Notes: generated by a model from the letters alone, not told the origin. DNA of 64,000 bases from Patescibacteria group bacterium (GCA_042568575.1 JBHPIO010000003.1:1-64000); one strand, 5' to 3'; numbered from the stretch's first letter, positions 19,515 through 56,056 are shown. Translations and numbers: made by a program.

Positions 19515-19542
19515 TTGACAAATGCCATAAATTCGTTATAGT
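19515..19542 (+). promoter_or_regulatory. Sigma70-type promoter of the orphan gene pair
   Basis: TTGACA-N16-TATAGT, divergent from the rpoB promoter. Confidence 0.7.
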
Positions 19543-19601
19543 TGTCGTCTGGATTCGAAACTTGCTATTGAGGGGGGACCTCAATGAGAAGGGAGATCAG
19601 A

Positions 19602-19925
19602 ATGCGTTGTGTATTGTTCGTTTACAACCTTGGTAGAAAGCTCACGTTGAGCGAAATCCAAGAGCGGGAGAAGTTCCTAAGTGAGGAGATCGTTCACATT
19701 ATGTATAGGATGCCCTCGGATGAAGATCTTGCGGCTCTGATTGCCATGAGGTATGGCTTTGTCAGCGTTATCGAGATTCTCAGGGACGACCCTACCGGAC
19801 TATCTGGATTGCAGGAAGCCCGGGAGGCTACAATCGTGCATCAGCGCATCATTTACGCTGATGATGACGGTGTCATACACGATGTGCCTCTTGATGTGAA
19901 TTTGGAAGAAGGCGCAGATCGTTAG
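19602..19925 (+). CDS. Orphan protein, copy 1 of a tandem paralog pair
   Basis: ATG at 19602 is preceded by AGGGAG (alternative start 19584). It aligns with the next ORF (YNLGR, MPSD..LAAL, EI.R....GLSGLQ.AR). Confidence 0.75.
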   Translation: MRCVLFVYNLGRKLTLSEIQEREKFLSEEIVHIMYRMPSDEDLAALIAMRYGFVSVIEILRDDPTGLSGLQEAREATIVHQRIIYADDDGVIHDVPLDVNLEEGADR

Positions 19926-19985
19926 GGCGCCTAGATTCGAAACTTGCCATGGGGGATAAGGCCCTCAATGAGGAGGAAGACCAGA

Positions 19986-20336
19986 ATGTGTACAGTGCTT
20001 GAGTACAATCTCGGTAGAGAGCTCTTCAGGAGAGAAGTCCTGGAGCTAGAGAGATTTCTGGACGAACCGGTCACGAGTGTCATCTACAAGATGCCTTCGG
20101 ACGGAGAGCTCGCCGCCTTGCTGCTGAACGACGATGATTGCAGGGGATGCGACGTTGTCGAGATCAACAGAAGTAGCTCGGACGGGCTTAGCGGTCTACA
20201 GATGGCTCGAAAGCTCGGATCTGTGAAGCAGCGTTTCGTCTGCGCCGGCGTTCACGGAATCGTGGGCGACCTGCTCGATACTGCAGATCTGGAAGATGCA
20301 GATTCCCGTGAGGCCATCCGCGTCGGCTGCTGCTGA
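19986..20336 (+). CDS. Orphan protein, copy 2 of a tandem paralog pair
   Basis: ATG at 19986 is preceded by AGGAGG; paralogous to 19602..19925. Confidence 0.75.
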   Translation: MCTVLEYNLGRELFRREVLELERFLDEPVTSVIYKMPSDGELAALLLNDDDCRGCDVVEINRSSSDGLSGLQMARKLGSVKQRFVCAGVHGIVGDLLDTADLEDADSREAIRVGCC

Positions 20337-20377
20337 ACACACAACCAAAAGCCCGCTGGTCATCGTACCTGCGGCAT

Positions 20378-20403
20378 GGGCGCTTGAAACGGGCGCCCTT
20401 TTT
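20378..20403 (+). terminator. Intrinsic terminator
   Basis: GGGCGCTT-gaaac-GGGCGCCC followed by a T run. Confidence 0.75.
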
Positions 20404-20513
20404 CTCACGATACGGTTCCGCTCATTTTGTTCGCTTCAATGTATCGTTCAAAAACATCCGCATCCAAAAAGGTTGGGACATGGATATCAATCTTAATGCA
20501 AATACATGCTTTA

Positions 20514-21266
20514 TTAAGAAATTTTAGCGTTTGTGAAATATTTGTCGTAATACTCTTTCATCTCTTTCAAATGCTTAAGTAGCTTTTCATCATTACCAGC
20601 TTCAAGGAATTTTGGATTAACCTTCATTGAAATTGTTCCTGGGAATTCGTCTTGCTTTAGCTTTGTTAAAAAGCTTTCAAGTGGAAGAATTCCATCATCA
20701 GGAAGATAATACTTCTTTGAACCTTTAACATTTGATATGTGAATGTGAACCAGATATTTTTCAAGTGTTTTGTAAACACGCATTAGATCCTGGCGTTTTG
20801 TCGCGATTCTTGTTGTGTCGATACATGCATGTTTAAACTTTTTCATTTCCACAATGTTGTTCATCGCATGTTTTGGAATGATTCCAAGGATAAGATCCGC
20901 AGGAGCGTTCTCAAGCGCGATCGAAATATTTTCCTTAGCGCGAATTTTTGGAACTTTATTTTTAAGCCATGAAGTCTGCCCGAAATTCAAAATCTTTGGT
21001 GGCTGAATAATAATCACTTTGCTATGAATTTTCTTTGCCATTTCAATAGTTTTATCCAAACGTTTTGGAGTTGCATCAGGCAGTTGAACCGAAAGAATAG
21101 GAAGTCCGTATTCAGACGATAGACTCTTAATATAATCAGCATTATGAGTGTCGTAGTTCTTATCTTCTATATATAGGTCAATTCCGTCGTATCCAGCTTC
21201 CTTTGCAAACTGAAAGATGCGGTTTAGTCCGTACCCATGTAATGAATCTGTTGATAACGCAAGCAT
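20514..21266 (-). CDS. Sugar phosphate isomerase/epimerase family TIM-barrel protein
   Basis: AKEAGYDGIDL, IALEN, CIDTT, VHIHISN pattern; some metal ligands look degenerate. Confidence 0.8.
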   Translation of the reverse strand: MLALSTDSLHGYGLNRIFQFAKEAGYDGIDLYIEDKNYDTHNADYIKSLSSEYGLPILSVQLPDATPKRLDKTIEMAKKIHSKVIIIQPPKILNFGQTSWLKNKVPKIRAKENISIALENAPADLILGIIPKHAMNNIVEMKKFKHACIDTTRIATKRQDLMRVYKTLEKYLVHIHISNVKGSKKYYLPDDGILPLESFLTKLKQDEFPGTISMKVNPKFLEAGNDEKLLKHLKEMKEYYDKYFTNAKIS

Positions 21267-21361
21267 ACTAATTTATTTAAATGTTCATGTTATTTTAACA
21301 CAAAAAGGCATGTTCTGGCAACCACTTAGGGGTTTACAAAATTAAAGTGTTTAGCATGAGT

Positions 21362-22633
21362 TTAAGTGCGCTCAATCTTCTCTTTTACTCCCATATAAGG
21401 CCTTAGAGCCGCTGGAATCTCAACGCTTCCATCTTTTTGCTGATAATTCTCAAGGATTGCAACGAATATTCTTGCCATTGCCATTCCTGTTCCGTTTAAA
21501 GTATGAACGTATTCTTTTTTCCCATCAGCATTTTTAAATCGAATCTTACTTCGTCGTGCCTGATAAGTTGTTGTATTTGAACAGCTAGTAATCTCTCTGT
21601 ATTTTCCTTGAGTTGGAACCCATGCTTCAATATCGAGCTTCTTTGCTGCCGGATTTCCAAGATCTCCACCACACACGTTTACAAGTTGGTATGGCAGACC
21701 TAATCCTTGAACTAGTTCTTCCTCGATGCTCACAAGAAGTTCATGCTCTTCTTTCGATTTATCTGGATGCACAAACGAGAACATCTCGATTTTATCAAAC
21801 TGATGAACGCGAATAATTCCATGAGTATCTTTTCCGTAACTTCCTGCTTCTCGTCTAAAACAAGGTGAAAATGCAACATACCGAAGTGGCAAATCTTTCT
21901 CGTCAATAATCTCGTCATAGTGAAGCATGCATAAAGGAACTTCACCTGTTCCAATTAAATATAAGTCGTCTTCTTCTGGATTCACTGAATAAATTTCGTT
22001 TTTTTCAGCAGGGAAAAATCCTGTTCCAAGCATCGCATGTTCGCGAACAAGTATTGGTGGCAGAATTGGTCTGAATCCTTTTGGTGTGATTTTGCTTAAA
22101 GCGTATTGAATAAGCGCAAATTCAAGCAAAACAAGGTCGTTTTTTACATAGTAAAATCGAGCTCCAGAAGTAACGGCACCTTTCTCAAGATCAAGTAAAT
22201 CCAAATCTTTTCCAATGGCCACGTGATCTTTCGGTTCAAAATCGAATTTAGTAGGATCAAGATGTGTCTTTATAATCTGATTATCCTGATCGTCCATTCC
22301 TTCAGGAACATCTTCCAGAGGTGGATTTGGGACTTGCAAAGCAAGATCACTCAACACTTCATATATATCATCTAATTCTTGTTCTTTAATTTTCAAATCT
22401 TCTTTTAATTTTTTCATTTCTGTTAATAATTCTTCTTGTTCTGAAGCAGATCTTTCTTTAAATTTTTTAGAAACAGCATTTTGCTTGGTTCTAAGTTCGT
22501 CTACTTCTGCAATTAAAGCTCTACGTTCGTTAGCAGTTTGAACAAGTTTATCAATATCAACATCTACGCGTTTTTTTCTGCAACCTTCTTTAACAAGGTC
22601 GATATTCTCAACAATAAATTTAAGATCGAGCAT
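21362..22633 (-). CDS. serS: Serine--tRNA ligase
   Basis: CFRREAGSYGKDTHGIIRVHQFDKIE, HTLNGT. Confidence 0.98.
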   Translation of the reverse strand: MLDLKFIVENIDLVKEGCRKKRVDVDIDKLVQTANERRALIAEVDELRTKQNAVSKKFKERSASEQEELLTEMKKLKEDLKIKEQELDDIYEVLSDLALQVPNPPLEDVPEGMDDQDNQIIKTHLDPTKFDFEPKDHVAIGKDLDLLDLEKGAVTSGARFYYVKNDLVLLEFALIQYALSKITPKGFRPILPPILVREHAMLGTGFFPAEKNEIYSVNPEEDDLYLIGTGEVPLCMLHYDEIIDEKDLPLRYVAFSPCFRREAGSYGKDTHGIIRVHQFDKIEMFSFVHPDKSKEEHELLVSIEEELVQGLGLPYQLVNVCGGDLGNPAAKKLDIEAWVPTQGKYREITSCSNTTTYQARRSKIRFKNADGKKEYVHTLNGTGMAMARIFVAILENYQQKDGSVEIPAALRPYMGVKEKIERT

Positions 22634-22687
22634 TTTTGTAAGTTAAATAGTCTCTATCTTTATAGATGATGGAGGGGTGATTGTAAA

Positions 22688-23707
22688 CTATTCTTTTTTC
22701 TGCGTAACAACAATAAATTCGTACATTGTCACAAATAAAACTACTATTAAAGGTCCGTATATAATTCCGATAGATCCAAATGCGTTTATTCCTCCAACGA
22801 TTGCCAAAAATACAAGCACTGGATGAACAGCAATTTTTTCATCAACAAGTTTTGGCTTGATGATGCTTTGAATCGCGATGATTTCAATAACTACGTAATA
22901 TGCGAGTACAAATAGCGCAGTGTATCCCCCCGCAAGGAAATACACGATGATTGCGCCAAGTGCATACACAACAAAAGATCCTATTGTTGGAATGAGGGAG
23001 AGTAATGCTGCCAGGATAGCCCATATAAGTGCTCCTGGGATGTTGAAAAATGTAAATCCAATGAATGCTAAGATTCCCGAAAGACACGCTGAAATCACAT
23101 TTCCTACAAAAACTGTTTTTGAAACATGTTTGAATTTTTTGAATAATTTTTCGTTTTGGTTTGCGCTAAATGGAGCTATTCTCTTTAAGTTCTTCAGTAA
23201 TTTTTCTGAATCGATAAGGAAGAAGATGTACATAAACAGGAATACAAAAAACAGGAATATAAACTGAGCTACATTTGCTCCTATATTGGTCGTCATTCCA
23301 TATATAACGTTTCCTGCATTTTGAAGAATACTTTGAAGTCCATCTTTGATTTGGTCTATATCAAGCGTAAATCCAAATATGCTGAAATCCGAGAAGTTGT
23401 CGAAAAACTCCCAGAATGCTTCTTGATCAAATGTTTGAACAAACGCGAGTGCTTCTTTTGCAATTAATCCTATTAATAGTGCGAGTGGGGTGAATATGAA
23501 AATCAGTGTTATTAAAAGAACAAGAACCGCTGATATAACTTTTGGGATTTTAAGCTTTTGAGTAAAGAATTTCATTAACGGGTAAAAGCTGATTGTGAAA
23601 ATGAGCGCGAATACAATGCTCGACAAATATGGCCATACAATTAATCCAAAAAGGAATGCAAAAATGGCTAGAATAAGATATTTAATGCTTGTGTGTACTG
23701 TTGTCAT
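22688..23707 (-). CDS. AI-2E family transporter
   Basis: Multi-TM; LIPTIGS...IKPKLV...VHPVLVFLAIVGG...GIIYGP. Confidence 0.9.
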   Translation of the reverse strand: MTTVHTSIKYLILAIFAFLFGLIVWPYLSSIVFALIFTISFYPLMKFFTQKLKIPKVISAVLVLLITLIFIFTPLALLIGLIAKEALAFVQTFDQEAFWEFFDNFSDFSIFGFTLDIDQIKDGLQSILQNAGNVIYGMTTNIGANVAQFIFLFFVFLFMYIFFLIDSEKLLKNLKRIAPFSANQNEKLFKKFKHVSKTVFVGNVISACLSGILAFIGFTFFNIPGALIWAILAALLSLIPTIGSFVVYALGAIIVYFLAGGYTALFVLAYYVVIEIIAIQSIIKPKLVDEKIAVHPVLVFLAIVGGINAFGSIGIIYGPLIVVLFVTMYEFIVVTQKKE

Positions 23708-23717
23708 AATTTATATA

Positions 23718-24194: not shown

Positions 24195-24269
24195 CCGAAG
24201 TTCTTTTAAAGGATTTCTAAAATCATTTTACAAGTTATTGATTCAGAATGACACAAATAAATTCAAAGG

Positions 24270-24923: not shown

Positions 24924-24983
24924 ATCGTAAATTCGTTAAAAAATTGCCTACATACTTTAAGGGAATTTTTGGAAAATTGGAAG

Positions 24984-26124: not shown

Positions 26125-26247
26125 AATTTAAAAGTTTAATAATATTTATTGCTTAACGGATTATATCATAATTCTGCAAATATCAATTGCGCTCTTTACA
26201 AAAATAGTAAACAATGTATAGTGCGCTCTTATTCATCAATAAAATAT

Positions 26248-27369: not shown

Positions 27370-27403
27370 CTAAAAAATCTCTTTCAAATTTATCTGATTT
27401 ACG

Positions 27404-27427
27404 ATATATTGATGTTGATCGATATGT
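27404..27427. promoter_or_regulatory. Putative ArsR/SmtB operator 1
   Basis: Imperfect inverted repeat ATATATTGAT-gttg-ATCGATATGT just upstream of the ArsR-family gene. Confidence 0.65.
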
Positions 27428-27438
27428 AATTTATTGTC

Positions 27439-27732
27439 ATGGTTGATTGTTGTCCCAAAAGTTGGCTAAAATTTTTTAAAGCTATATGTGACGAACATCG
27501 TCAAAAAATACTTGAGCTTTTGCATCATCATGAAAAACTGAACGCGAGCGAAATTGTTAAGAAGCTCAAACTTTCGCAGCCTACGGTCTCTCATCATTTA
27601 AAGATTCTTGTTGAATCAGATACGATAAAATCCGTAAAAAAAGGAAAGGAAGTCTTCTATACACTATCAAAGAATCACATATCTAAATGCTGCCATGGCT
27701 TTATGGAGCATTTTACGAAAAAGAAGAAATAA
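27439..27732 (+). CDS. ArsR/SmtB family transcriptional repressor
   Basis: FKAICDEHRQKILELL...LSQPTVSHHLKIL winged HTH; CC pairs at both ends. Confidence 0.92.
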   Translation: MVDCCPKSWLKFFKAICDEHRQKILELLHHHEKLNASEIVKKLKLSQPTVSHHLKILVESDTIKSVKKGKEVFYTLSKNHISKCCHGFMEHFTKKKK

Positions 27733-27736
27733 CGTA

Positions 27737-27766
27737 TTGACACATTTAAATCTATCGATGTATACT
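27737..27766 (+). promoter_or_regulatory. Promoter overlapped by putative ArsR operator 2
   Basis: TTGACA-N18-TATACT overlapping ACACATTTAA-atct-ATCGATGTAT. Confidence 0.6.
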
Positions 27767-27795
27767 AGGGGTGATTTATTCATAACCCCCTTATT

Positions 27796-27975
27796 ATGTT
27801 TTGTGGACACGGTCATGGGGACCACAAGGAGTTCTTTAAGGACATCAAACACGACATGGTGAACGAAGGAGACAAACTTGTTATCACTATTTCAGGCGAC
27901 AAGGACAAACTCGCTAAGATCGAAAAGAAGATTAAAGCGTTTCACACACTTTGTTGCGGAGACGACTGTTGCTAG
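27796..27975 (+). CDS. 59-aa His/Cys-rich putative metal-binding protein (not in the ORF track)
   Basis: My translation: MFCGHGHGDHKEFFKDIKHDMVNEGDKLVITISGDKDKLAKIEKKIKAFHTLCCGDDCC*. It has its own promoter and terminator. Confidence 0.8.
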   Translation: MFCGHGHGDHKEFFKDIKHDMVNEGDKLVITISGDKDKLAKIEKKIKAFHTLCCGDDCC

Positions 27976-27984
27976 TAGAATTGG

Positions 27985-28020
27985 GGAAGGCGAGGAGATA
28001 TTAATCCTCGCCTTTTCTTG
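27985..28020 (+). terminator. Intrinsic terminator
   Basis: AAGGCGAGGA-gatattaa-TCCTCGCCTT-TTCTT. Confidence 0.7.
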
Positions 28021-28717
28021 TTAGTTGTCCGTCGGTGTATTTCACCTCAATTTTCAAATCTCTACATATCTCACTATATCTACTAGCCATTGGTTTTCCT
28101 TCCATGTCCTCTTCGCAATAGATTGCATATTGCTCTTCAAGACCTGTGTCTGTAATATCAATCGATTTTAAATGTATTTCTGTTTCGCCTGCTTCAATAT
28201 CAAGATATTCTAAGTTATTCATTGCAGGTGGGTGTACAAATTTATATTCGCTATCATGATGAGCTATAAGATAATACGTTCCAATCGCAGGCATAGGACG
28301 CTCTAAAGAGTCTTGAACAAATAGCTCTTTATTGCCGTCATTATCAGCGTCAACGACTTTATAATCTCTTAAAAATCGAAGTACCTCCGAGTTTGAGTTT
28401 GGAAAAGCATCTTCTTTTACGACTTGCCACTTATTATCTTCAAGCGCAATTACAAGTAGATGTTCACTATCAACAGTTTGGTCCTGCCAAACTACATTTT
28501 CACTTTTGTAATAAAGTATTTTTTCATTAACACCATCTCCGTTGAAGTCTGCTTCATCAACAGAAACATCTTCTGCGTTGTGTGTAGTAAATGAAGCTGC
28601 ATCGAATTCAGCTGGTGTTGTTTCGGTGATTGGCTCTGCAATTGGTTCTGTTTGGGCGCATCCATTAAAATTGAGAATTACAAGAAGTCCCATCAGGGCG
28701 AGAATAAGATTTTTCAT
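28001..28717 (-). CDS. Putative lipoprotein with FG-GAP-like Ca-binding motifs
   Basis: Likely start MKNLILALMGLLVILNFNGC (lipobox-like Cys); ADFNGDGVNE and DADNDGNKE motifs. Confidence 0.75.
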   Translation of the reverse strand: MKNLILALMGLLVILNFNGCAQTEPIAEPITETTPAEFDAASFTTHNAEDVSVDEADFNGDGVNEKILYYKSENVVWQDQTVDSEHLLVIALEDNKWQVVKEDAFPNSNSEVLRFLRDYKVVDADNDGNKELFVQDSLERPMPAIGTYYLIAHHDSEYKFVHPPAMNNLEYLDIEAGETEIHLKSIDITDTGLEEQYAIYCEEDMEGKPMASRYSEICRDLKIEVKYTDGQLTRKGED

Positions 28718-28750
28718 GGTTGATTGGTTAAATATTGTTACCTCTATTAA

Positions 28751-28778
28751 CAATAACAAACTTAATTGAAAAAGTTGC
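28751..28778 (-). promoter_or_regulatory. Putative ECF-sigma promoter
   Basis: GCAAC-N16-GTTATTG on the minus strand; the same motif recurs at 29009-29036. Confidence 0.6.
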
Positions 28779-28784
28779 GGTTTT

Positions 28785-28820
28785 TGGAAAAGCGGGACCC
28801 CTCTCAGTCCCGCTCTTCCA
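28785..28820 (-). terminator. Hairpin terminator after the 41-aa ORF
   Basis: AGCGGGAC-N8-GTCCCGCT followed by TTT on the minus strand. Confidence 0.6.
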
Positions 28821-28850
28821 TATATCCTTAAACCCTTGTCGAATTTTTAG

Positions 28851-28976
28851 TTATTCCATACATGCAGCAATGTAATGTGTGTTTTGCACAGCGGCCTTTG
28901 CCAAAGCAATGTTGTAGCTGGTTAGGCTAATCATTATGAATGTTGATACTATTCCAAGAGCGAAAAATATTTTCAT
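28851..28976 (-). CDS. 41-aa hydrophobic or secreted peptide (not in the ORF track)
   Basis: MKIFFALGIVSTFIMISLTSYNIALAKAAVQNTHYIAACME*; flanked by a promoter motif and a hairpin. Confidence 0.55.
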   Translation of the reverse strand: MKIFFALGIVSTFIMISLTSYNIALAKAAVQNTHYIAACME

Positions 28977-29008
28977 GGTGGATGTGTTTATTAATATGCC
29001 TTCACTTT

Positions 29009-29036
29009 CAATAACACACCGTTTTAGAAAAGTTGC
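29009..29036 (-). promoter_or_regulatory. Putative ECF-sigma promoter
   Basis: GCAAC-N16-GTTATTG, same spacing as 28751-28778. Confidence 0.6.
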
Positions 29037-29041
29037 GGTTT

Positions 29042-29845
29042 TTATTTTTCCAGAAGAGGATTATACATCATAATCGCATGGTTCTCTGCGATAACCTCTT
29101 CTTTTTCTATTTTGTTTGTATGCTTGTTAATTGTCTTGCGGCAGATTTTGTTATTCCTTGTATATCCGCCCCAAGGTTCACTTTCAATCTTATGATCTTG
29201 TTCAAAAATTTCATATTTAACGTTAATTGGTTTGTCAGACAGCCATTTCCCAACCAAATGAGTTTCAGTGATTTCAAGATGAAGCTGGAATTTCTGGTGC
29301 GTATTATTCTTTATTTGAAGATCTATATTTGGATATCCGCAAGTTGCACCACTCCCAAAAGGCTGATTCCTTTTGACATCCGGGAAGACATCGTAGCTGT
29401 GACGCCAACGTTCAATAACAGATAGAGGAGTGTGAAGCGTCATCCAAAAAATAAGATTTGATAACTGGCAAATTCCTCCACCTATTCCGGATTTAACGGT
29501 TCCATCGTGTAGGATCATTCCTTTTAGATAGCCTTTGTGTTTGGTAGGTCTTCCTATAAGACGCCAGTAAGAAAATATTTGTTCTGGTTCAATAATAAGC
29601 CCGTTCATTTTCTTTATAGCGATTTTGAGATTTTGAATTTTGTTTTGTTGAAGCTGCATTTGGACATTCTTCAGCTTTCTAAGCAGGACGGTTTTGTGGG
29701 TGAAAATTTCATTTGGAAAGAGCGGCTTTCTTTTGTTTGTCGCAAACTTATTTCCAGACAAGTACCAGTAATAATATCTCTTGATTGTGTAGTAAATCTT
29801 TCCAGACAACAATCTCAGTTTCGATCTTTTCTTGGGTTTCTGCAT
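29042..29845 (-). CDS. VanW family protein
   Basis: FSYWRLIG...GIGGGICQLSNL...ERWRHS...DLQIKN. Confidence 0.9.
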   Translation of the reverse strand: MQKPKKRSKLRLLSGKIYYTIKRYYYWYLSGNKFATNKRKPLFPNEIFTHKTVLLRKLKNVQMQLQQNKIQNLKIAIKKMNGLIIEPEQIFSYWRLIGRPTKHKGYLKGMILHDGTVKSGIGGGICQLSNLIFWMTLHTPLSVIERWRHSYDVFPDVKRNQPFGSGATCGYPNIDLQIKNNTHQKFQLHLEITETHLVGKWLSDKPINVKYEIFEQDHKIESEPWGGYTRNNKICRKTINKHTNKIEKEEVIAENHAIMMYNPLLEK

Positions 29846-30062
29846 GTTTAAATTTTAGATTCCACCTGGGTGGAATCCCAGTTTCTAATATTTTTCCAAA
29901 AGAGTCAATTCCTGCTGCCTTTTCTGCTAAAGTGCTTTTTTGTCAAATTTTCTACATTGAAAACCTAAATAAAGTGGCATATGAATAACGAATTTGTTTA
30001 TTGTTGATGATTGCAAAAAGTGTTGGAATCATTATAAAAACCTAATAAGTTTGTTAAATTTT

Positions 30063-30090
30063 TTGACAGCAATAAGGTATAAAGTAGACT
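30063..30090 (+). promoter_or_regulatory. Sigma70-type promoter of the orphan lipoprotein
   Basis: TTGACA-N16-TAGACT. Confidence 0.65.
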
Positions 30091-30223
30091 TTTTTTGCGA
30101 AAGAAGAGTTTTCGTAAATGGCCTTAATTGAGCCAGCCCTTCATGATCCCCACAGCGATAGGGTCCTGATCTTTAACATTCTGTGTCTGGGGAGCACGGA
30201 GACAAGAGAAAGAGGAGCGAGAG

Positions 30224-31975
30224 ATGAATTACAGAACTTTGTTGACGGGGTTGGTGGCGTTGATGTTTGTGGGTTGTCCTGTTACACCAAAGCCGGACGT
30301 TAGGGAGCCGGTGGTTGTACGAGAACGACCAAAACCCAAGCTTCCGCCCATTCCGGCGAAGCTGGTGTGGAGTGATGGTTCGATTTTCGTGCCAACGAGG
30401 GAGTACACAACGTGCAACATTAGCGGCCGTGTCTACAGGATTTTTCTTCCTGACAATCGGGTGATAACGAAGAACTTGTACTATTACGAGCCGGTTGTGT
30501 GGCTCAAGCCTGTTCATCCCAAAAATAAAAGGCCTTACTCGGAATTCAGTCTGACGAATTACGATCTGACCAAGAATGCAGAGTGCCGCAAGCGAATTTG
30601 TTTGACGCAAGGAAAGCCGAAGTGCACAGTGGTTCTTTCTCCATTGCCTGTTTCCATGGTTGAAATAGGTGCAGCGAATGGTCATCCAGTAGGCAAGGCA
30701 TACGCTCGAAAATGGAGAAGAATCTTTAGAATTAATCAACGTTTGCAAAGTGGTGTAAGGGTTATAATTCCGCGCAAAACTGCCGCAGACGAAAAGCAAT
30801 ATTGCCCGATTCCTTTGGAAATCAGATATCGTTATCGTGCTTTCCGTGGTAGCGTAGCGCCTCAGCTCGTCCTCGATTTGTATTCAATGGCAAACTCGAG
30901 GGAATTCCAGCGGCTTTCCCAGAAGGTGAAGGTGGGTAGCGGAAACACACCCACACTCGTGGCGCCTCATCAGGTTCAGAGCTTGTTTACCAGGCAGAGC
31001 ACGAGTCTTACCAAGTACACCATCAATTTCTATGGTGATGACGGGAGCTCGCAGCCGTTTGTTAACAAGCTGCACGGCCTTTTGTCCGATGGGATGGAGA
31101 ACATTCTTACGGTAAATCTGGCTGCGGATCAAGCGAAACTTTCCCGTATGAGCAAAGAGCTTGTGTCGGGGATGGACTTCCAGAAGCTTCCAGACATTAT
31201 CAACAAGGCGGTGAAATCATTCAATAGCGCAAAAACTTCCAGGGAGCAGCGCACGCATATGTCTCATCGCGAGAAGTGGGATTTCTTCTCGGTCGTGGCC
31301 AAGGGCGCTTTGGAGTATCTAGGTCTGAAGGATCAACCTGCTAAGTGGACAAAGGACGAGTGGGACAAATTCATCCATGCCACAAAGAATACGTTCAAGT
31401 GGGAGCAGATAGATAGAACGGCAAACACCTGGCGTATCAGAGCGATCAACTTGGTGCGCTTGGTGGTTAGCAACCAGGTAAAAACCGCCTCAGTGCGAAC
31501 GGCCAAGTTCGATCTCAGTAGCTTTTCCTACCAGGAGGCTAATTACGCGGTTAACGTGCGTTGTAAGTGTATCCCGCGTGACGGCCACTGCGATGCGGGC
31601 TGCGAGACCTTTGGTACCAGCCCTCAAGATGATTGTGGGTGGTGTAGGCCTGTGTGCAAAGTGGTTCGAGTTGGGCGCGCAAGGGATTTTTGCCATACTA
31701 CACCGAATATGCATAACAGATCTGTTATCAGAAGCGGAACTATTTGTCTGCCAGCGGGGCATATAATTAGCAAGCTTCAGTATTTCTGTCATGGGGCTGC
31801 TTGTCCTTGGTCCTATGATCCTCGGGGTGGATACGGCGCTAATTATCGACTCCATACTGGAAACAGGTGTGCTATCTGGGCAAGGAAATGGGGTGGAAGA
31901 CCAGTTCGAGAGTGTTACAGAGTTCATTACACCGTCCCAGTCCGCCAGTGTCCCCGCGTTTGCACCCGCCGATAA
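30224..31975 (+). CDS. Orphan basic, Cys-rich putative lipoprotein
   Basis: MNYRTLLTGLVALMFVGC lipobox-like start, SD GAGGAG, 583-aa ORF, Cys-rich C-terminus, higher GC than the flanks. Confidence 0.8.
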   Translation: MNYRTLLTGLVALMFVGCPVTPKPDVREPVVVRERPKPKLPPIPAKLVWSDGSIFVPTREYTTCNISGRVYRIFLPDNRVITKNLYYYEPVVWLKPVHPKNKRPYSEFSLTNYDLTKNAECRKRICLTQGKPKCTVVLSPLPVSMVEIGAANGHPVGKAYARKWRRIFRINQRLQSGVRVIIPRKTAADEKQYCPIPLEIRYRYRAFRGSVAPQLVLDLYSMANSREFQRLSQKVKVGSGNTPTLVAPHQVQSLFTRQSTSLTKYTINFYGDDGSSQPFVNKLHGLLSDGMENILTVNLAADQAKLSRMSKELVSGMDFQKLPDIINKAVKSFNSAKTSREQRTHMSHREKWDFFSVVAKGALEYLGLKDQPAKWTKDEWDKFIHATKNTFKWEQIDRTANTWRIRAINLVRLVVSNQVKTASVRTAKFDLSSFSYQEANYAVNVRCKCIPRDGHCDAGCETFGTSPQDDCGWCRPVCKVVRVGRARDFCHTTPNMHNRSVIRSGTICLPAGHIISKLQYFCHGAACPWSYDPRGGYGANYRLHTGNRCAIWARKWGGRPVRECYRVHYTVPVRQCPRVCTRR

Positions 31976-32050
31976 CCCCTCTCCAATTCTCTTGTTAGTT
32001 ACGTAGCAAACACACTTCGGTGATTTCCCGGAGCTGATTGCTCATTCTTG

Positions 32051-32090
32051 CCCTACACCAAGCTTAGTTTAGTTTGCGTGTAGGGTTTTT
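32051..32090 (+). terminator. Intrinsic terminator
   Basis: CCCTACAC...GTGTAGGG followed by T5. Confidence 0.7.
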
Positions 32091-32092
32091 GA

Positions 32093-34063
32093 TTATTTTT
32101 TTTCTTCCTCATTTGCAGGCGCCTCTTCTTTATCCTCATCTACAACTTCACCTTCAACAACTTCTTCTTCGTCGGTTTTCTTTTCTTTTACAGTTACGCC
32201 GTCGTCTTCTTCGGCAGGAGCACCTTCTTCGCCTGGTGCTGCAGCACCAGCGGCTTTGTACATTTCTGCTCCAACTTTTTGAATAACTTCGGACAATGCT
32301 TCGTAAGCTGGTTTAATTTCTTCGTCTGTAGCTTCTTTGTTCTCAAGGATTTTCTTTAGTTCGTCGATCTTTTCCTGAACTGGCGCTTTCACGTCGTCGC
32401 TGACTTTGTCGCCGGCATCTTTAAGAGTCTTTTCACTTTGGAAAACTAGGCTTTCCGCTTTATTTCGAACTTCAATTGCTTCTTGTTTTTTCTTGTCTTC
32501 TTCAGCGTATTGTTCAGCTTCTTTTTTCATTCGTTCGATTTCCTCATCAGCCATATTTGAAGATCCTGTAATTGTAATATGCTGCTCTTTGTTTGTCGCC
32601 TTATCAGTTGCTTTTACGTTCAGGATTCCGTTTGCGTCGATGTCGAATGTAACTTCAACTTGTGGTACGCCCCGTGGAGCTGGCGGAATTCCATCGAGCA
32701 TGAATTTTCCGAGCGACTTATTGTCAACGGCCATTGGACGTTCACCTTGCAGTACGTGAATCTCAACAGATGTTTGATTGTCTGCAGCAGTTGAGAAAAC
32801 CTGAGATTTTGAAGTAGGGATTGTTGTGTTGCGTTCAATCAATTGCGTACAAACACCTCCCAGAGTTTCAAGTCCAAGTGATAGGGGAGTTACGTCCAAA
32901 AGAAGGATGTCTTTTACATCTCCTTGTAAAACTCCACCTTGAATTGATGCTCCCATTGCCACAACCTCATCTGGATTGATTCCTCTGTGTGATTCTTTGC
33001 CGAAAATTTCTTCTACTTTAGCTTGAACTGCTGGCATTCTTGTCATTCCTCCAACAAGGATTACTTCATCAATGTCGCTTTGATAAACCTTTGCATCGTC
33101 CATTGCTTTTCGGCATGGCTCTACAGTGTCATGAATCAAGTCGGCAATAAGATCTTCCAATTTTGCTCGGTTCAATTTGATGTTCAAATGCTTTGCCCCA
33201 TCGCTATCTGAAGTGATAAATGGAATGTTGACTTCAGTCTCATGTTGAGAAGAAAGCTCGATTTTAGCTTTTTCAGCTCCATCTTTTAATCTCTGGATAG
33301 CAACTTTATCTTTTGATAAATCTACTCCCTGTTCTTTTTTGAATTCTTCTACAAGCCAGTCGATGATTTTTTGATCGAAGTCATCACCACCAAGCTGAGT
33401 GTTTCCATTTGTAGAAAGTACTTCGAATTGTTTTTCTCCTTCTACATCATCAATCTCAAGGATTGAAACATCGAAAGTTCCTCCACCAAGATCGTATACT
33501 GCGATCTTTTTCTCTCCGCCTTTTTTATCCATTCCATATGCAAGAGCGGCAGCTGTTGGCTCGTTAATGATTCTTTTTACTTCAAGTCCTGCGATTTTCC
33601 CGGCGTCTTTTGTCGCTTGTCTTTGCGAATCGTTAAAGTATGCAGGAACTGTGATTACTGCTTCTGTAATTGTTTCACCTGTATATTTTTCCGCGTCCGC
33701 CTTTAGCTTTTGTAAGATCATTGCTGAAATTTCAGCTGGTCTTCGTTCTTTCCCATCAAGCACCATCTCAACTTCTCCACTTTTTCCTTTTACGCACTTA
33801 AACGGCATACGATCAATATCTTTTTTAGATTCATCATACAAATGTCCAATAAAACGTTTTGATGAAAAGATAGTATTGTCTGGGTTTGTAACTGACTGAC
33901 GTTTAGCAGCAACACCAACAAGACGTTCTTTGTCTTTAATTGCAACCATCGATGGAGTGGTTCTTCCACCTTCAGCGTTAGGGATCACAGTTGGCTCTCC
34001 GCCTTCCATAATTGCCATACAGCAGTTAGTTGTTCCCAGGTCGATTCCAAGTATTTTACCCAT
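32093..34063 (-). CDS. dnaK: Chaperone DnaK (Hsp70)
   Basis: [31 protein letters not shown]. Confidence 0.99.
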
Positions 34064-39096: not shown

Positions 39097-39225
39097 TCTA
39101 AATTTGGACGTGCCGAACCCGATTCATTGCGCATGCCTCGTTGCTATACTCTTTGGTATGCTTTGAGATGGCTGCTGTGAATGCGGGTTGGTGTTTTTGG
39201 ACTTTGTGAGGTTAGTGGGGAGGGG

Positions 39226-39732
39226 TTATGCTGCGAGTTCAGCTTGATCCATTTCGGCCAGGATACCTTGTATGTACTTCCAGGATATGCCGTTTAGGGC
39301 GTGCCGAACGATGATGTTGGCGCGAACTGCGACACCGCGAAGTGTGATATGATTTTGTGTTCGCAACCAGTGGTCATTTTCTTGACTACCGAAACAGCCA
39401 AGGCATTCACCCATCTTATCCGGGGACTTTACTTCTCGGATGAACCTCCTGGCTCTGTTCACGGCCATGTTGCTTACACGATTTGCTTCATCGACGACTT
39501 CCGGCCTTTCGGCGCAGATTTCTCGATGTTTTTCTCTATACCAAAGGGTATACTTCACGGCCCATGCCATTGGTATTACCACAACCTTCTTGCCTTCGGG
39601 CAAAGAAATGTTCATGAGACCACAGAGATACCGTGAGGCCTCCGTGAGGACTTCCCAGTCAAGCTGTGCATACAGCTCTTTTAGGTGCTCCGGGTGATTC
39701 CAATCCTTCAAATTTTCCGCAGTACCGCTCAT
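39226..39732 (-). CDS. Orphan protein
   Basis: ATG at 39732 preceded by AAGGAGG; higher GC; ends in ELAA. Confidence 0.75.
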   Translation of the reverse strand: MSGTAENLKDWNHPEHLKELYAQLDWEVLTEASRYLCGLMNISLPEGKKVVVIPMAWAVKYTLWYREKHREICAERPEVVDEANRVSNMAVNRARRFIREVKSPDKMGECLGCFGSQENDHWLRTQNHITLRGVAVRANIIVRHALNGISWKYIQGILAEMDQAELAA

Positions 39733-39827
39733 TGCATCCTCCTTGTTGTTGCATAAACCGTCAAAAACATACAATTGTTAATATGCTTGTGGCGGCTTAT
39801 GCAATTCCACTACCTTTCAAAGATCAT

Positions 39828-39870
39828 AAAAAAAACAGCTGAATTATAACGGTGATAACTCAGCTGTCAA
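39828..39870 (-). terminator. gap terminator hairpin that also contains a TTGACA-N16-TATAAT promoter for the orphan gene
   Basis: ACAGCTGAGTTAT-N7-ATAATTCAGCTGT plus a T run on the minus strand; -35 at 39865-39870 and -10 at 39843-39848. Confidence 0.7.
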
Positions 39871-39887
39871 CTTTTTGTCTTAGGCAA

Positions 39888-45795: not shown

Positions 45796-45834
45796 AAAAT
45801 TGTAAAGAAACCTACGTGAATACGTTTACTAATT

Positions 45835-46416: not shown

Positions 46417-46470
46417 CAAAATCCAACTTTTGTCGTTAGTTATAACGCAATAAGGCATAAAAGGGGAACC

Positions 46471-48700: not shown

Positions 48701-48714
48701 AGGGAATAGGGGAA

Positions 48715-49608: not shown

Positions 49609-49611
49609 TAT

Positions 49612-50319: not shown

Positions 50320-50320
50320 A

Positions 50321-51832: not shown

Positions 51833-51878
51833 CTTTGAAAGAAGAGATTGCTTTCTCCTTTGCCGTATTTTTCGTGTT

Positions 51879-54338
51879 TTAAACTTCAGTGTAAATTACA
51901 GTTAGAAATAAATTGCTCCAGTCATCTTGTTTTATACCTATCCCTATTTCTTTCCATTGTGAGTTCAAAATGTCGCTTTCTTCTAAGAGTTTTTCTTGAA
52001 GAGTTTTCGCAGAACCTTCTTTTAAAATGTATGCTTTTCCTTCAGAAGTGATTCCATTGCTTTGGACTACATCAATCAGGTTTATACCAGATGGAGCGGT
52101 AAAAGAAAAGAAGTTTAGATTGATCATATCCGCACTCCATTCTCGGGATATATTTCGTAATTCGCTATTTAATATAAACGGAGCTTCTCGATTATTGTTA
52201 ACACCATTTAAAATTTCATATTCAAACTGCTCAAGATCGCCATCATTCCATGGAGCGTGCGAGAATTCTTCTGCAATAAATAAGTATCCAGAATCTCCTA
52301 AAGAAATTCCAAGTCCTACGTTGTCCCAGGTAGGATCCAAAACGTTTTGACGGTGTATTGCACTTCTCATTAGCGCTTTATGTGCGAAGTAAACTGTTGG
52401 AGCATGAGCAAGGTTTTCACCAACTTCTGTGGATATTCCATAATTTATTCTACGGTCGTCTGGGGTTTCTCCATCGAGATTGATGTGTGAAAAATAGTTC
52501 AGATCCCCCATGTCGTCGGCATGTGCTTGAGAAAGATTATTTAAATCATCTCGCATTGAAATACCAGAAAGTCCGTGTGATGCTCTTTCTTCATTTATGT
52601 ATGAAAGAAGCTCATTTCTGGAGCTTACAATGTGAAGTGATTCAGTAATTTCCATTGGATCCTGTAGATCGAAGAAGTCAGGAATAATAGGAATTCCATT
52701 ACCTATATATATAGGTACATTAACAACAGCTGAGCCGCCTTGATCATTTATCTCTAAAATATAAGTTCCTGTTTGTGCTGGCTTGTATGAGAAATTGAAA
52801 GATGAGTTTGCCGGAATTACGTCGTTTCCATAGTAATCAAGAAGTTGAGCTGAGGTGTGGATATCAAACATATCTATTGACCCGTCCGGTTTTATAACAG
52901 CACCTTCTGCGAAAATGTTTTCTTCAGTAAATCCAGATACAGAAAAAGTTTCTGTAGAGGTTAGAGTTTCCGGGAGTGAGTTGTATGTAAGTGCGTCATC
53001 AAGCGTTAATTTAAAATGATGCTTTACTCCTTTAAATGTTGTGTCGGCACTTTTGCCCCATTTAGATGAAAGCCGCACAGGAGCAAGTGAATCAGCTTGT
53101 GCTCCATAAACTCGCCATTTAATGTTATCTTCCTCGAATGTTTTAAAGTCGTTGTAGACGATTTCTAGAGTATCTACGTCGCGAACAAAATAAGATTCCA
53201 CATTGTTGTTCTGCATGAAGTAGATTCTGAATACGTCGTTTTGAGTTTTATTCCACGAAATTGTTGTAGCATCGTCTTCAAAGTCTATTGAAAGTCCGGA
53301 TGGAGTGTCTGAATTTGTTGCTGTCCCTTCTCCTGGGATTCCATCTAAAACATGAATAGGAGCAATTTTGCTTTCTCCATTATTTCCAGGAATTACACCT
53401 AACTGATACGTTCCGGCATTCCTGAATACCATCGGGATTTCAAAGCGATTACCACTAACTGTTCCTATAAAGTGAGTGTAATCATTTCCGCTTCCGTTAT
53501 CTTCCGCAAGAAAAGCAAAGATTGTATCGTAAGATCCACCATTAGTTATTTCGCCTTCCATAATGTATATCTCGTTTTTATAGAAAGTATTTGGAAGTGT
53601 ACTATCTAGCTCAATTTCGCTGAAGTAGTCAGAATTTATGGTAGAAAAATCTTCCGGATTATCAACATCCTGCACTTCATTAATTTTGTCTTCCGCTGTT
53701 TTATCTCCGCTATAGTTAATTACATCTTTTATAATAGTTTGATACATGAGCTGCGCCATATATCCTCTTGTGATTTCTTCACTTGGATTCAAAATGTTCG
53801 TTTCCGCAGTTAAAATTCCTTCTTCTTTGGCAAAATAAACATAAGGTGAGTACCACGTGAAACGGTAAGTGTCGTCGTAAGAGTTACTAGGAACTTCGGC
53901 AAGATCTAAGCGATCCCATTCTTGAACTTCGCCTAAAATTTTAAGTGCCTCCACTTTATTAATATGCTTTAGAGGTTGAAATGTCCCGTCAGGATATCCC
54001 TGAATCCATCCTTCGTATTTGGCTTTGCGAACGTAAGGTGCGTACCATTGGTTCTCATCTATATCAGGAAAACCACTTGCTGTATCGATATCCAGATTTA
54101 CTTCCGTTCCTTCAAGAACGATCTTCAAAAATTCGGTACGACTGATTGGTTGATCCGGACGAAATGTTCCGTCTTCATATCCCTGAACAACTCCATTTGA
54201 TTGAAGATAAGTGATCGCAATTTCGTTTGGATGCGTTATTGATACATCCGAAAATGTTGATCCAAACACCGTACTTGATTGAATAAAAAACACTATAATA
54301 ACGGGTACACTCAGGTACCTTAATAACTTTGATTTCAT
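51879..54338 (-). CDS. SLH-domain protein with C-terminal CAP domain(s)
   Basis: GYEDGTFRPDQPISRTEF SLH motifs; YFSH...GENLA...MRSAIHRQNVL CAP motif plus a degenerate second CAP. Confidence 0.88.
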   Translation of the reverse strand: MKSKLLRYLSVPVIIVFFIQSSTVFGSTFSDVSITHPNEIAITYLQSNGVVQGYEDGTFRPDQPISRTEFLKIVLEGTEVNLDIDTASGFPDIDENQWYAPYVRKAKYEGWIQGYPDGTFQPLKHINKVEALKILGEVQEWDRLDLAEVPSNSYDDTYRFTWYSPYVYFAKEEGILTAETNILNPSEEITRGYMAQLMYQTIIKDVINYSGDKTAEDKINEVQDVDNPEDFSTINSDYFSEIELDSTLPNTFYKNEIYIMEGEITNGGSYDTIFAFLAEDNGSGNDYTHFIGTVSGNRFEIPMVFRNAGTYQLGVIPGNNGESKIAPIHVLDGIPGEGTATNSDTPSGLSIDFEDDATTISWNKTQNDVFRIYFMQNNNVESYFVRDVDTLEIVYNDFKTFEEDNIKWRVYGAQADSLAPVRLSSKWGKSADTTFKGVKHHFKLTLDDALTYNSLPETLTSTETFSVSGFTEENIFAEGAVIKPDGSIDMFDIHTSAQLLDYYGNDVIPANSSFNFSYKPAQTGTYILEINDQGGSAVVNVPIYIGNGIPIIPDFFDLQDPMEITESLHIVSSRNELLSYINEERASHGLSGISMRDDLNNLSQAHADDMGDLNYFSHINLDGETPDDRRINYGISTEVGENLAHAPTVYFAHKALMRSAIHRQNVLDPTWDNVGLGISLGDSGYLFIAEEFSHAPWNDGDLEQFEYEILNGVNNNREAPFILNSELRNISREWSADMINLNFFSFTAPSGINLIDVVQSNGITSEGKAYILKEGSAKTLQEKLLEESDILNSQWKEIGIGIKQDDWSNLFLTVIYTEV

Positions 54339-54467
54339 ATTAATTTGCTAAGGACGCTAATGCATAATAAGCCTGCTCTTACGAGGTGTCAAACATCTAT
54401 TTTTGACATAAATAACCGTTTTCATTACAATTTGTGAGACTGTTTAATTCTTTAACCTTAAAAGGAT

Positions 54468-55502
54468 ATGAAAGTATTTTCTAAGGTCACTCTATTTACT
54501 CTTGTTGCAGGGCTTCTAGCCTTCGGAGCAGGTTGTGGTGGGGAAGGTCTTCCAGCAGGTAAATCACCTGAAGATGTAATTACGGAAGCACTTCTCAACT
54601 CAGAAGAAGTGACAAAATCTGTCTTTGAAATGTCAGTAGTAGCTGACCTCAAGGGAGACGTTGATGGTGAAAAAAACGATCTTAAAGGAGAAATGAAAAT
54701 TTCTGGAACTAACGACGTAGATGCTGGAACAATGCAGATTGCATTTTCTGTAGACGGAAGCATGAATGATGATAGCGTTGAAGCTAGCCTTGAGTTACGT
54801 GCTAACAAAGATGGTGTATTCGCAAAAATTGGAAAAGTAAAAGTTTCTGACTCAGATGTTACAGAACTTATCGATGCACTTGATGAAGAAGGATACATTG
54901 GAGACTGGCTTAATCTTTCTTTCATTAGTTCAGAAGATCTTATGCAAGGTGGATTCGGTGAAGTTGATTATACTGAGGGAGACGATCTTCCATTCACAAA
55001 TATTGAATACAAAGGAACAAAAGACGTTCTAGGTATCAACAGTTATTATTTTGCAGCAGATATCGACAAAGAAATGTTTGTTGGAATGATGGAAACAGGG
55101 GATCTTGCAGATGCTGAAGAATTCTTCGACGCAGCAGAAATTAGTGGAGAAGTATACGTTGCAGTAAAAGAAAACCTTCTAACAGGATTTGCTGGAAAAA
55201 TGAAACTTGATGACAAAGAAATGAACGGAACAATGGATATGTCATTCATGATCAACCCAACAAAATCAAGCCCAGTATCAACACCAGATGCAAAGAAAGA
55301 AATCACTGAAGAAGACATTGCAATGCTAATGTTCGGAGGTGCAATGATGGATCCAGGTCTTGAACTAGACGATGAAATGATGGTTGATGATCTAACAGGA
55401 GAAACAATTCCTTACTTCGACGGTGAAGAAATCACTGACGAAGAAGCAATGAGACTCCTTGAAGAAATGGAAGCAGAGTTAGAAGCTTTAGAAGCTATCT
55501 AG
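54468..55502 (+). CDS. Acidic lipoprotein (possibly LolA/LppX-like beta fold)
   Basis: Lipobox FGAGC; beta-rich body; upstream TTGACA-N17-TACAAT. Confidence 0.75.
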   Translation: MKVFSKVTLFTLVAGLLAFGAGCGGEGLPAGKSPEDVITEALLNSEEVTKSVFEMSVVADLKGDVDGEKNDLKGEMKISGTNDVDAGTMQIAFSVDGSMNDDSVEASLELRANKDGVFAKIGKVKVSDSDVTELIDALDEEGYIGDWLNLSFISSEDLMQGGFGEVDYTEGDDLPFTNIEYKGTKDVLGINSYYFAADIDKEMFVGMMETGDLADAEEFFDAAEISGEVYVAVKENLLTGFAGKMKLDDKEMNGTMDMSFMINPTKSSPVSTPDAKKEITEEDIAMLMFGGAMMDPGLELDDEMMVDDLTGETIPYFDGEEITDEEAMRLLEEMEAELEALEAI

Positions 55503-55521
55503 TCACGCATTACGAAACATC

Positions 55522-55560
55522 AAAAAAAGGCCTTCTCGCGTGATGCGGGAGGGTCTTTTT
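55522..55560. terminator. Bidirectional intrinsic terminator
   Basis: A7-GGCCTTCTCGCG-tga-TGCGGGAGGGTC-T5. Confidence 0.8.
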
Positions 55561-55575
55561 ATCTAAATTAGTCTG

Positions 55576-55616
55576 AGGCCCTTATTTATACTCGCTGGGC
55601 CTAAATGTACGAGTAT
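55576..55616 (-). other. Predicted H-type RNA pseudoknot in the 3' UTR of the orphan gene
   Basis: Two crossing perfect helices, ATACTCG/CGAGTAT (7 bp) and AGGCCC/GGGCCT (6 bp). Confidence 0.6.
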
Positions 55617-55625
55617 TGACGGAGA

Positions 55626-55937
55626 CTATCCTGAGTCCACGTCGGCGGGGAAGATGCCAAATGTCTTGAACAGATTTGTCACGACACTTAGGGGCGTCTC
55701 CTTCTCGTTTACCCGCTCAGCTATGTTTACTTCCACATTGAAGCGATCAAACGATTTTATTGATCCACTACCCGAATTCACGGCTTCGAGGGATATAATG
55801 GTTACTATCCCCTCGCGTTTTTGTTCCGTGTTCTCTCCTTGGTGATGGGTCCATTCCACAACGTTATCTTTGTCGTCAACGATTGCGTACAGTTTCGCGA
55901 GGTCCTGAATCTTGAGAAAACTCAATTCGATGATCAT
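55626..55937 (-). CDS. Orphan protein
   Basis: ATG at 55937 preceded by AGGAGG; promoter TTGACA-N16-TATGAT at 56021-56048. Confidence 0.7.
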   Translation of the reverse strand: MIIELSFLKIQDLAKLYAIVDDKDNVVEWTHHQGENTEQKREGIVTIISLEAVNSGSGSIKSFDRFNVEVNIAERVNEKETPLSVVTNLFKTFGIFPADVDSG

Positions 55938-56056
55938 ACTGTTCCTCCTGCAGATAATGTCTGCTGTAATGGATTCTTGGGTTGTGAAAGGACATAAATG
56001 ACACATAGCTAACTGCCTGCATCATACAATTAATCATGGGGGTGTCAAGCTTTTGC

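Follow-up and report, generated by a model that had tools for sequence, protein, structure and literature searches.

Four short GC-rich transcription units, here called loci A to D, stand singly among housekeeping genes in a 64,000-nucleotide stretch of DNA from a Patescibacteria group bacterium (GCA_042568575.1 JBHPIO010000003.1:1-64000, which is positions 1-64000 of the contig we call C23; hereafter the window), and they raise the question of what such units are and how they come to carry expression signals of their own. A first-pass annotation, made from the sequence alone, had grouped them as orphan expression cassettes of a common design and proposed that they make up a separate class of genes with particular signals for translation. 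It missed the fact that we regard as decisive, which is that every locus is a clean insertion relative to a genome of the same genus. We conclude that the four loci are probably lineage-specific, recently inserted accessory-gene cassettes belonging to a wider population of high-GC islands, each an autonomous, moron-like unit with a promoter, a long leader, a Shine-Dalgarno (SD) site, an orphan open reading frame (ORF), and either a terminator of its own or that of a neighbour. As far as sequence allows us to judge, they would represent accessory DNA gained from elsewhere, and not a novel type of genetic system.

The source genome (G000) is a 1.20 Mb assembly of 31 contigs, with about 38% GC and 82% completeness. 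Its RpoB is most similar to that of a metagenome-assembled genome (MAG) titled 'uncultured Candidatus Peribacteria bacterium' (66% identity), with other bacteria of the candidate phyla radiation (CPR), Firmicutes and Actinobacteria reaching at most 60%, and we treat it as a putative Peregrinibacteria-like CPR bacterium, a label taken from the titles of the matching records rather than from a tree. Flanks and loci were searched at the DNA level in 12 other genomes of the family (13 with G000), and the comparison leans on G001, a relative of the same genus. G001 has the flanks of locus A, of the segment holding locus B, and of loci C and D at 76–89% identity, and lacks the loci; all four are thus cleanly absent from it, which identifies them as lineage-specific insertions (Table 1). 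In nine of the 12 family genomes site A is empty, its flanks being separated by 62 nt at most (three could not be resolved), and site D is empty in all three of the family genomes in which both flanks were matched; the native bidirectional terminator next to D (55521-55560) is also present in G001. Locus B is nested in a larger strain-specific segment, so that its own 5′ boundary is undefined, and where this 4.76-kb segment would lie G001 has two convergent stop codons 1 nt apart. The inserts at A, C and D start 11–17 nt upstream of the −35 element.

Table 1. Features of the four loci and their inserts (window coordinates; z, folding score relative to shuffled sequences; GC1/2/3, GC content at the three codon positions).
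Feature	Coordinates	Strand	Remarks
Locus A insert	19504..20479	+	Pairwise alignment window against G001 C46; G001 has ~40-60 nt of unrelated sequence here (alignment and BLAST)
Locus A promoter, TTGACA-N16-TATAGT	19515..19542	+	Starts 11 nt within the insert; divergent from the rpoB promoter at 19497-19470
A1 leader	19549..19601	+	Hairpin TTGAGG-GGGGA-CCTCAA, then SD AGGGAG (19590-19595); fold z -2.68
ORF A1, 107 aa	19602..19925	+	GC1/2/3 = 0.60/0.31/0.55; other in-frame ATG at 19584
A2 leader and ORF A2	19926..20336	+	Leader a duplicate copy, SD GAGGAGG 19970-19976; ORF A2 19986-20336, 116 aa
Locus A intrinsic terminator	20378..20405	+	3′ fold z -1.98
4.76-kb segment missing from G001	27372..32129		Holds ArsR-type helix-turn-helix gene, 252-aa ORF, VanW-like gene and locus B
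Locus B promoter, TTGACA-N16-TAGACT	30063..30090	+	
boxA-like element TGATCTTTAACATT in B leader	30167..30180	+	11 consecutive nt in common with native rrn boxA
ORF B, 583 aa	30224..31975	+	Lipoprotein-like N-terminus (read by eye), Cys-rich C-terminus; SD GAGGAG 30212-30217
Locus B intrinsic terminator	32050..32092	+	Adjoins dnaK stop codon; fold z -4.10
Locus C insert	39105..39883	-	G001 has a 26-35-nt hairpin spacer here
Locus C promoter, TTGACA-N16-TATAAT	39843..39870	-	Overlapped by a 16-nt inverted repeat
C leader	39749..39827	-	ATGATCTTTGAAAGGTAG (39827-39810), then 56-nt hairpin (39804-39749); fold z -2.98
ORF C, 168 aa	39226..39732	-	No homolog among 5.8e9 proteins
Locus D insert	55560..56056	-	Left edge +/- ~5 nt; between native bidirectional terminator and stop codon of TrmB-like gene
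Locus D promoter, TTGACA-N16-TATGAT	56021..56048	-	Starts 12 nt after the neighbour's stop codon
ORF D, 103 aa	55626..55937	-	SD AGGAGG 55949-55944

The perfect TTGACA-N16-TAnnnT promoter that the first-pass annotation had placed at each of the four loci is there, although it does not set them apart, as had been supposed, as a shared cassette design. Perfect matches with spacers of 16, 17 and 18 nt number 31, 44 and 20 in the genome, against first-order Markov expectations of 24, 21 and 17. Of these 95 matches (94 by a non-overlapping scan), 66 of the 94 lie within 250 nt upstream of an ORF called by the simple dicodon-based gene caller that we wrote for this analysis (1110 genes called), and 54 of those 66 precede native genes, including rpoB. 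Since most of the perfect promoters precede native genes, the cassette promoter is the ordinary native sigma-70 consensus. It is the leader that differs. The native −10 element usually ends 8–36 nt before the start codon, from which a 5′ untranslated region (UTR) of only about 1–30 nt is predicted for most native mRNAs; the long leaders noted earlier at the loci hold up in all four cases, with 59 nt from the end of the −10 element to the ATG of A1, 133 nt at B, 110 nt at C and 83 nt at D.

The same is true of the SD sites and of base composition. Each locus has an SD site 5–9 nt before the ATG with at least 5 nt complementary to the 3′ end of the 16S rRNA (at C it is AAGGAGG, 39744-39738), and the SD-less character of native starts, noted earlier for a handful of genes, applies genome-wide: at 924 confident native starts, SD 4-mers fall from 22–27 per 2-nt bin at positions −60 to −46 to 3–9 at positions −18 to −4, so that they are depleted, not enriched, where they would act. 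The cassette ORFs have a GC content of 0.465–0.56, compared with 0.38 for the genome, and a third-position GC content (GC3) of 0.53–0.65, compared with a native median of 0.29, which confirms the raised GC reported before. The native dicodon model did not call A2, B or D, and scored A1 at only 24 and C at only 9; the order GC1 > GC3 > GC2 in A1, A2, C and D supports their being coding.

The association proposed earlier between SD sites and elevated GC was then scored over the whole genome, using the native calls together with gap-filling ORFs, minus nine ORFs at contig edges and 13 overlapping rRNA genes, and taking GC3 of at least 0.45 as the high-GC3 class. An SD 5-mer lies 3–11 nt before some start in the first 40 codons of 25 of the 66 high-GC3 ORFs and of 34 of the 1062 others (odds ratio 18, p = 9e-18; 25/72 and 38/1078 before cleaning), and when only the first start is considered the counts are 10/66 and 4/1062 (odds ratio 47). 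Control windows of equal size within the high-GC ORFs gave 2, 1 and 0 matches. The high-GC class holds spurious antisense ORFs, which dilute the SD fraction rather than inflate it. Perfect promoters precede 12 of 72 high-GC ORFs and 54 of 1078 others, with the N16 spacer in 10 of those 12 and in 17 of the 54, and the median leader is 96.5 nt for the high-GC ORFs compared with 28 nt for the native genes. The link between SD and GC3 recurs in G006, a genome from a different genus with 35% GC that is assembled as one contig; over 400 kb of it, SD sites accompany five of 14 high-GC3 ORFs and 11 of 408 others. SD sites, long leaders and high GC thus go together across the genome and hardly occur in native genes, and the notion of a separate gene class with translation signals of its own finds support in a descriptive sense.

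The translation machinery bears on how such genes could be read. The 16S rRNA of G000 ends in GGATCACCTCCTTTCT and retains the canonical anti-SD (CCUCC), and nusB is present as well (PF01029 match at C3:29299-29688), both of which the first-pass annotation had suggested looking for. A search of G000 for bS21 did not find it, and clades containing Peregrinibacteria often lack this protein, according to one source (PMC9297842). There is an evident likeness to the SD-independent translation of Bacteroidia, in which native mRNAs lack SD sites and the 16S rRNA keeps CCUCC; the Bacteroidia anti-SD is reported to be hidden by bS21, bS18 and bS6, and rpsU is the lone gene with a strong SD (PMC7797042, PMC6847099, PMC13000453, PMC3155529), the hiding by bS21 being specifically described in PMC13000453. 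G000 differs in that bS21 was not found and in that its SD-led genes are acquired accessory genes.

The four loci are not alone. G000 has 107 stretches with at least 48% GC, amounting to 7.3% of the genome and including rRNA and some native segments, and the three islands that we checked (C12:17253-19637, C12:21060-21908 and C4:18781-22979) are all absent from G001. Island genes elsewhere include a thiolase, a mannosyltransferase-like membrane protein, a methyltransferase and a fragment of an OPT transporter. The foreign genes and strain specificity of these islands are ordinary signs of horizontal acquisition.

The proteins themselves offer few clues, and the description of the loci as orphans holds, no homolog at all having been found for C and D. 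Locus A comprises not one gene but two tandem paralogous ORFs, with a single homolog outside (P0012, 76% identical to A2), and ORF B has four homologs at 46–69% identity among 5.8e9 proteins (the one at 69%, P0006, is encoded on a 46.6-kb contig), none in 40 relatives, and a further partial one on a 1.8-kb metagenome contig with 41% GC, next to an msrB gene with an SD-less start. A full HMMER pass over 1.84e9 representatives gives no homolog of ORF D, and ORF C has no usable match in the ESM Atlas. No family was assigned to the cassette proteins by Pfam, PHROGs or PADLOC, a STAS_2 match for A2 (E = 0.031) lying below threshold; viral-contig searches with A, B, C and D gave no relatives, nor did a profile search of genome contigs with the B alignment. 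AlphaFold2 models of A2 (from three sequences) and of B (from a five-sequence alignment) are too poor to interpret, with predicted local distance difference test (pLDDT) values of 43 and 49. Conservation of ORF B across five sequences, the dN/dS between A1 and A2 and the A2 homolog all favour coding. ORF B has the appearance of a surface lipoprotein, and we think the cassette products are probably accessory proteins. A1 and A2 share 42% protein identity, with dN/dS of 0.24 and dS of about 2.2; because their leaders are still 82–84% identical while synonymous sites are saturated, the leader appears to be constrained. No Rfam family matches the window, either at the gathering threshold or at E up to 1, and ARAGORN finds no tRNA in it.

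How, then, might such units persist in a genome with different rules of initiation? The cassettes may have arrived with complete donor-type expression signals, or have survived only by having them, and the resident ribosome would read their SD sites. GC-rich and more structured 5′ ends could require an SD, as the native route through very short, AT-rich, unstructured leaders would be closed to them. The SD, the long leader and the GC content would then together reflect foreign origin combined with selection for complete signals in a host that initiates differently.

Morons in phage genomes are autonomous units of promoter, gene and terminator between conserved genes, often with a deviant GC content. 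This is the closest known design, so that the earlier suggestion of phage-like morons stands as to architecture: the loci are one- or two-gene units with a consensus-match promoter inside each insert, cleanly inserted, atypical in composition and without a mobility gene of their own. It fails as to a phage connection, given that there is neither a PHROGs match nor a relative in viral contigs, and that the cassettes are set between regulators and housekeeping genes (rpoB, dnaK, gap) of the chromosome rather than in a prophage. Only A and B have the terminator of their own that is typical of morons; C is structured without an adjacent T-run and D borrows that of its neighbour. Genomic islets are a second comparison, being similar in raised GC and GC3, in strain specificity and in accessory or surface-type products (the C4 island even lies by a tRNA-like element), and different in that the present units are 0.5–2 kb long, have no integrase, repeats or tRNA target at the four loci, and that for C and D neither a donor nor a close homolog was found. 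Integron cassettes differ further, since the inserts have no terminal inverted repeats and the tyrosine-recombinase matches in G000 (four, all on other contigs) lie elsewhere, although no search with an attC model was made.

If the resident ribosome does read these SD sites, the lineage offers a test of why SD-poor bacteria keep an anti-SD, and also of how foreign genes become expressible under other initiation rules, as one small genome contrasts about 1,060 SD-less native genes with short leaders with a few dozen strain-specific, GC-rich, SD-led genes. The combination of SD, GC3 and leader length would in any case be a practical marker for recently acquired accessory genes in CPR genomes, and several of the acquired genes look like those of surface proteins, which may matter for host attachment. 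If the cassettes are only recent transfers retaining donor signals, they represent ordinary genome-island biology in an unusual organism.

Several observations weigh against this interpretation. There is no integrase, phage family, terminal inverted repeat, flanking direct repeat or target duplication at the inserts, as the first-pass annotation had already remarked with respect to an integrase and IS ends, and the insert edges match the edges of transcription units more neatly than illegitimate recombination alone predicts. No donor was found, C and D having no homolog, A one outside homolog, and B four plus one metagenome locus; the setting of the one B homolog whose context was seen, in DNA of 39–42% GC with an SD-less neighbour, means that the source of B may be another AT-rich, SD-poor lineage and not an SD-using donor. 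The GC3 cut-off of 0.45 is arbitrary, and both the gene calls and the choice of starts come from our own simple caller. Finally, ORFs with related leaders occupy the site after gap in G006 and G003 (see below), which hints at site-specific turnover, a lead rather than a result.

A bolder version of the preferred interpretation, which we offer tentatively and consider unlikely on present evidence, is that in an SD-less CPR lineage apparently lacking bS21 and Rho the conserved anti-SD serves a second, separate translation channel used almost only for acquired or accessory genes. Expression of a GC-rich cassette would then depend on its having a strong SD, a consensus N16 promoter and a leader that is long and in some cases structured or equipped with a boxA, and such cassettes would turn over at preferred intergenic hot spots such as those after gap and dnaK. 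If true, this would help to explain the retention of the anti-SD, and CPR chromosomes would have an economy of moron-like cassettes.

There is room for a dedicated and so far undescribed process of cassette exchange, in which CPR bacteria would trade promoter-to-terminator modules at favoured sites between genes, perhaps through natural transformation followed by recombination in the flanks, so that the cassettes would not be random debris of horizontal transfer. One argument for it comes from the site of locus C. In G006 (C1:1096389-1096960), immediately after the gap stop codon, there is a TTGACA-N16-TATAAT promoter, a leader with GACCTTTGAAAGGT and an SD site, AAAGGAGGT, followed by a different ORF of 133 aa with 56% GC and then by a terminator; in G003 the promoter is followed by a native-style ORF with 40% GC whose start, at ATGATGCTTGAAAAGG, follows the −10 element by 17 nt, as ATGATCTTTGAAAGGTAG does in locus C. 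The post-gap site thus holds three different ORFs in G000, G006 and G003, with promoters 2–20 nt from the stop codon and a common leader motif, GAYCTTTGAAAGGT or GATGCTTGAAAAGG, and the family members also differ in the stretch that follows dnaK. The start of the A, C and D inserts just upstream of the −35 element, their ends at or near a terminator, and the over-representation of N16 among high-GC promoters all fit such modules. Against them stand the lack of a recombinase, attachment-like repeat, terminal inverted repeat or target-site duplication at the inserts, and the presence of islands such as C12:21060-21908 with no promoter within them. The three-way alignment of the post-gap leaders is weak outside one short motif, and the other ten family genomes have no comparable post-gap unit in the sequence inspected. 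As for recurrent motifs, CTTTGAAAGG occurs four times where our base-composition estimate expects about 3.7, and a 3′-end motif common to C and D, AATTTAGAT, was discarded as an insertion signal because it is not enriched at island ends (4 versus 3.8 expected). We think a dedicated exchange system doubtful.

It is a good deal less probable that the loci are ancestral, fast-evolving genes that the relatives have lost. Genes with a similar leader start at the locus C site in G003 and G006 would fit this view, as would the age of the A1/A2 duplication; however, GC3 at the four loci has not drifted to the host median, sites A and D are empty in every family genome in which they could be resolved, and the proposed homology between ORF C and the G006 post-gap ORF was rejected, with BLASTP giving no alignment and tblastn nothing. 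We think it very improbable that the high-GC segments are chimeras of assembly or binning; the genome is indeed a MAG in 31 contigs and incomplete, but every island has native sequence collinear with G001 on either side of it in the same contig, the inserts contain AT-rich promoters of native type, and G006, assembled as a single contig, has cassettes of the same kind. Least credible of all is the earlier speculation that the transcripts are tuned for the SD-reading ribosome of a host cell, for which the sole point is that SD sites are otherwise almost unused in G000, whereas its own 16S has a canonical anti-SD, bS21 was not found, the promoters follow its own consensus, the lipoprotein-type signal of B (read by eye) implies export by the resident cell, and no feature for RNA export is known or was seen.

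The remaining elements of the proposed common design are shared less widely than the SD site and the leader length. The hairpin said to lie immediately before each SD folds better than shuffled sequence in only two of the five leaders, those of A1 and C; the z-scores for A2, B and D are +0.62, +0.30 and +1.19. For the 45 nt that precede the SD in 25 SD-led high-GC ORFs the mean z is only −0.88, with four below −2, and we have rejected such a hairpin as a general design. Structure at the 3′ end, also claimed for all, is borne out by the terminators of A and B and by the region following ORF C, which is structured (z −3.69) without an adjacent T-run, but not at D, whose 3′ end has no structure of its own (z −0.48) and uses the terminator of its neighbour.

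The boxA-like motifs reported in three of the leaders reduce to one. At B, TGATCTTTAACA (30167-30178) differs from the E. coli boxA at one of 12 positions, and TCTTTAACATT is identical to the boxA of the G000 rrn leader, CGTTCTTTAACATT, where a hairpin is followed by CGTTCTTTAACATTT. The candidates at C and D match at nine of 12 positions, which is the chance level, as 2.4 Mb contain 2014 sites that differ from the E. coli boxA at no more than three positions, or about 0.08 per 100 nt. G000 has 65 copies of the core TCTTTAACA, and seven of them are intergenic, in the sense orientation and upstream of a gene: one in the rrn leader, one at locus B, one at C31:20739 before a high-GC SD-led ORF, one at C23:104934 before an ORF with a GC3 of 0.46, and three before native genes. 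This distribution is suggestive, although few sites are involved and the comparison was made post hoc. The B element thus resembles an rrn boxA served by NusB and NusE, in sharing 11 nt with the boxA of its own genome and in the presence of nusB, and departs from one in lying in an mRNA leader with no adjacent boxB-like hairpin and in a family in which Rho was not found: TIGR00767 has no match in G000, and the Rho RNA-binding domain PF07497 has none in any of the 13 family genomes, seven of which are at least 90% complete. The protection of untranslated RNA from Rho that had been suggested for boxA is therefore not applicable as stated.

Two other leaders in G000 deserve mention in this connection. 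A perfect boxA of the E. coli type, TGCTCTTTAACAATTT, is present at C23:104931-104946, about 107 nt upstream of an ORF (105050-105607) that has a tandem paralog, and at C31:20560-20975 the long leader of a high-GC ORF contains the boxA-like CATTCTTTAACATCT and a 3-codon mini-ORF behind a strong SD (AATAAGGAGGTGAAACATGGACGGATGA), before the main SD.

Several of the cassettes have an ATG soon after the −10 element. At B, a 61-codon ORF (30118-30303) starts 27 nt after it and overlaps the start of ORF B in another frame; at C, ATGATCTTTGAAAGGTAG, which is also the claimed boxA, forms a 5-codon mini-ORF 17 nt after the −10 element; and at D an in-frame ATG at 56006, 14 nt after the −10 element, would give a protein of 126 aa. 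These may be upstream ORFs or alternative starts of native style, but their interpretation as vestiges of native starts was not retained, as a rough estimate judged their occurrence at three of four loci not significant. The promoter of locus C is further distinguished by a 16-nt inverted repeat, ACAGCTGAATTATAAC / GTGATAACTCAGCTGT (39835-39867), which covers the spacer, the −10 element and the start region and looks like an operator for a dimeric repressor.

A repeat of about 50 nt (TGCCTTCACTTTCAATAACACA ... AAGTTGCGGTTTTTAT) is found in the window at 28995-29047 and also at C12:17212-17259 and C31:30580-30633; each of the three copies in G000 is beside or near a high-GC island, and G008 and G001 have matches as well. 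A common regulatory or promoter element is one possibility.

Among the other islands, C4:18781-22979 is specific to G000 and adjoins a conserved tRNA-like element of 75 nt. It carries genes for Oah (TIGR03200) and Had (TIGR03201), enzymes of the anaerobic benzoyl-CoA pathway that one would not expect in a CPR genome of 1.2 Mb. Three secreted paralogs with high GC and with Cys-rich acidic repeats of the myxo_disulf_rpt type are encoded at C26:83100-85643, C2:36570-39020 and C12:17378-19429, the last of them absent from G001; two of the three have sorting tails of the MYXO-CTERM or GC_trans_RRR type, one scoring above and one just below the curated cut-off. A crude regular expression for the lipobox matches five of 50 compared with 27 of 968, a weak enrichment. 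Within the window itself, we note that rpoB and rpoC are split by a Na/Ca-exchanger gene and an ssb gene (13892-15443), an unusual break in the rpoBC operon.

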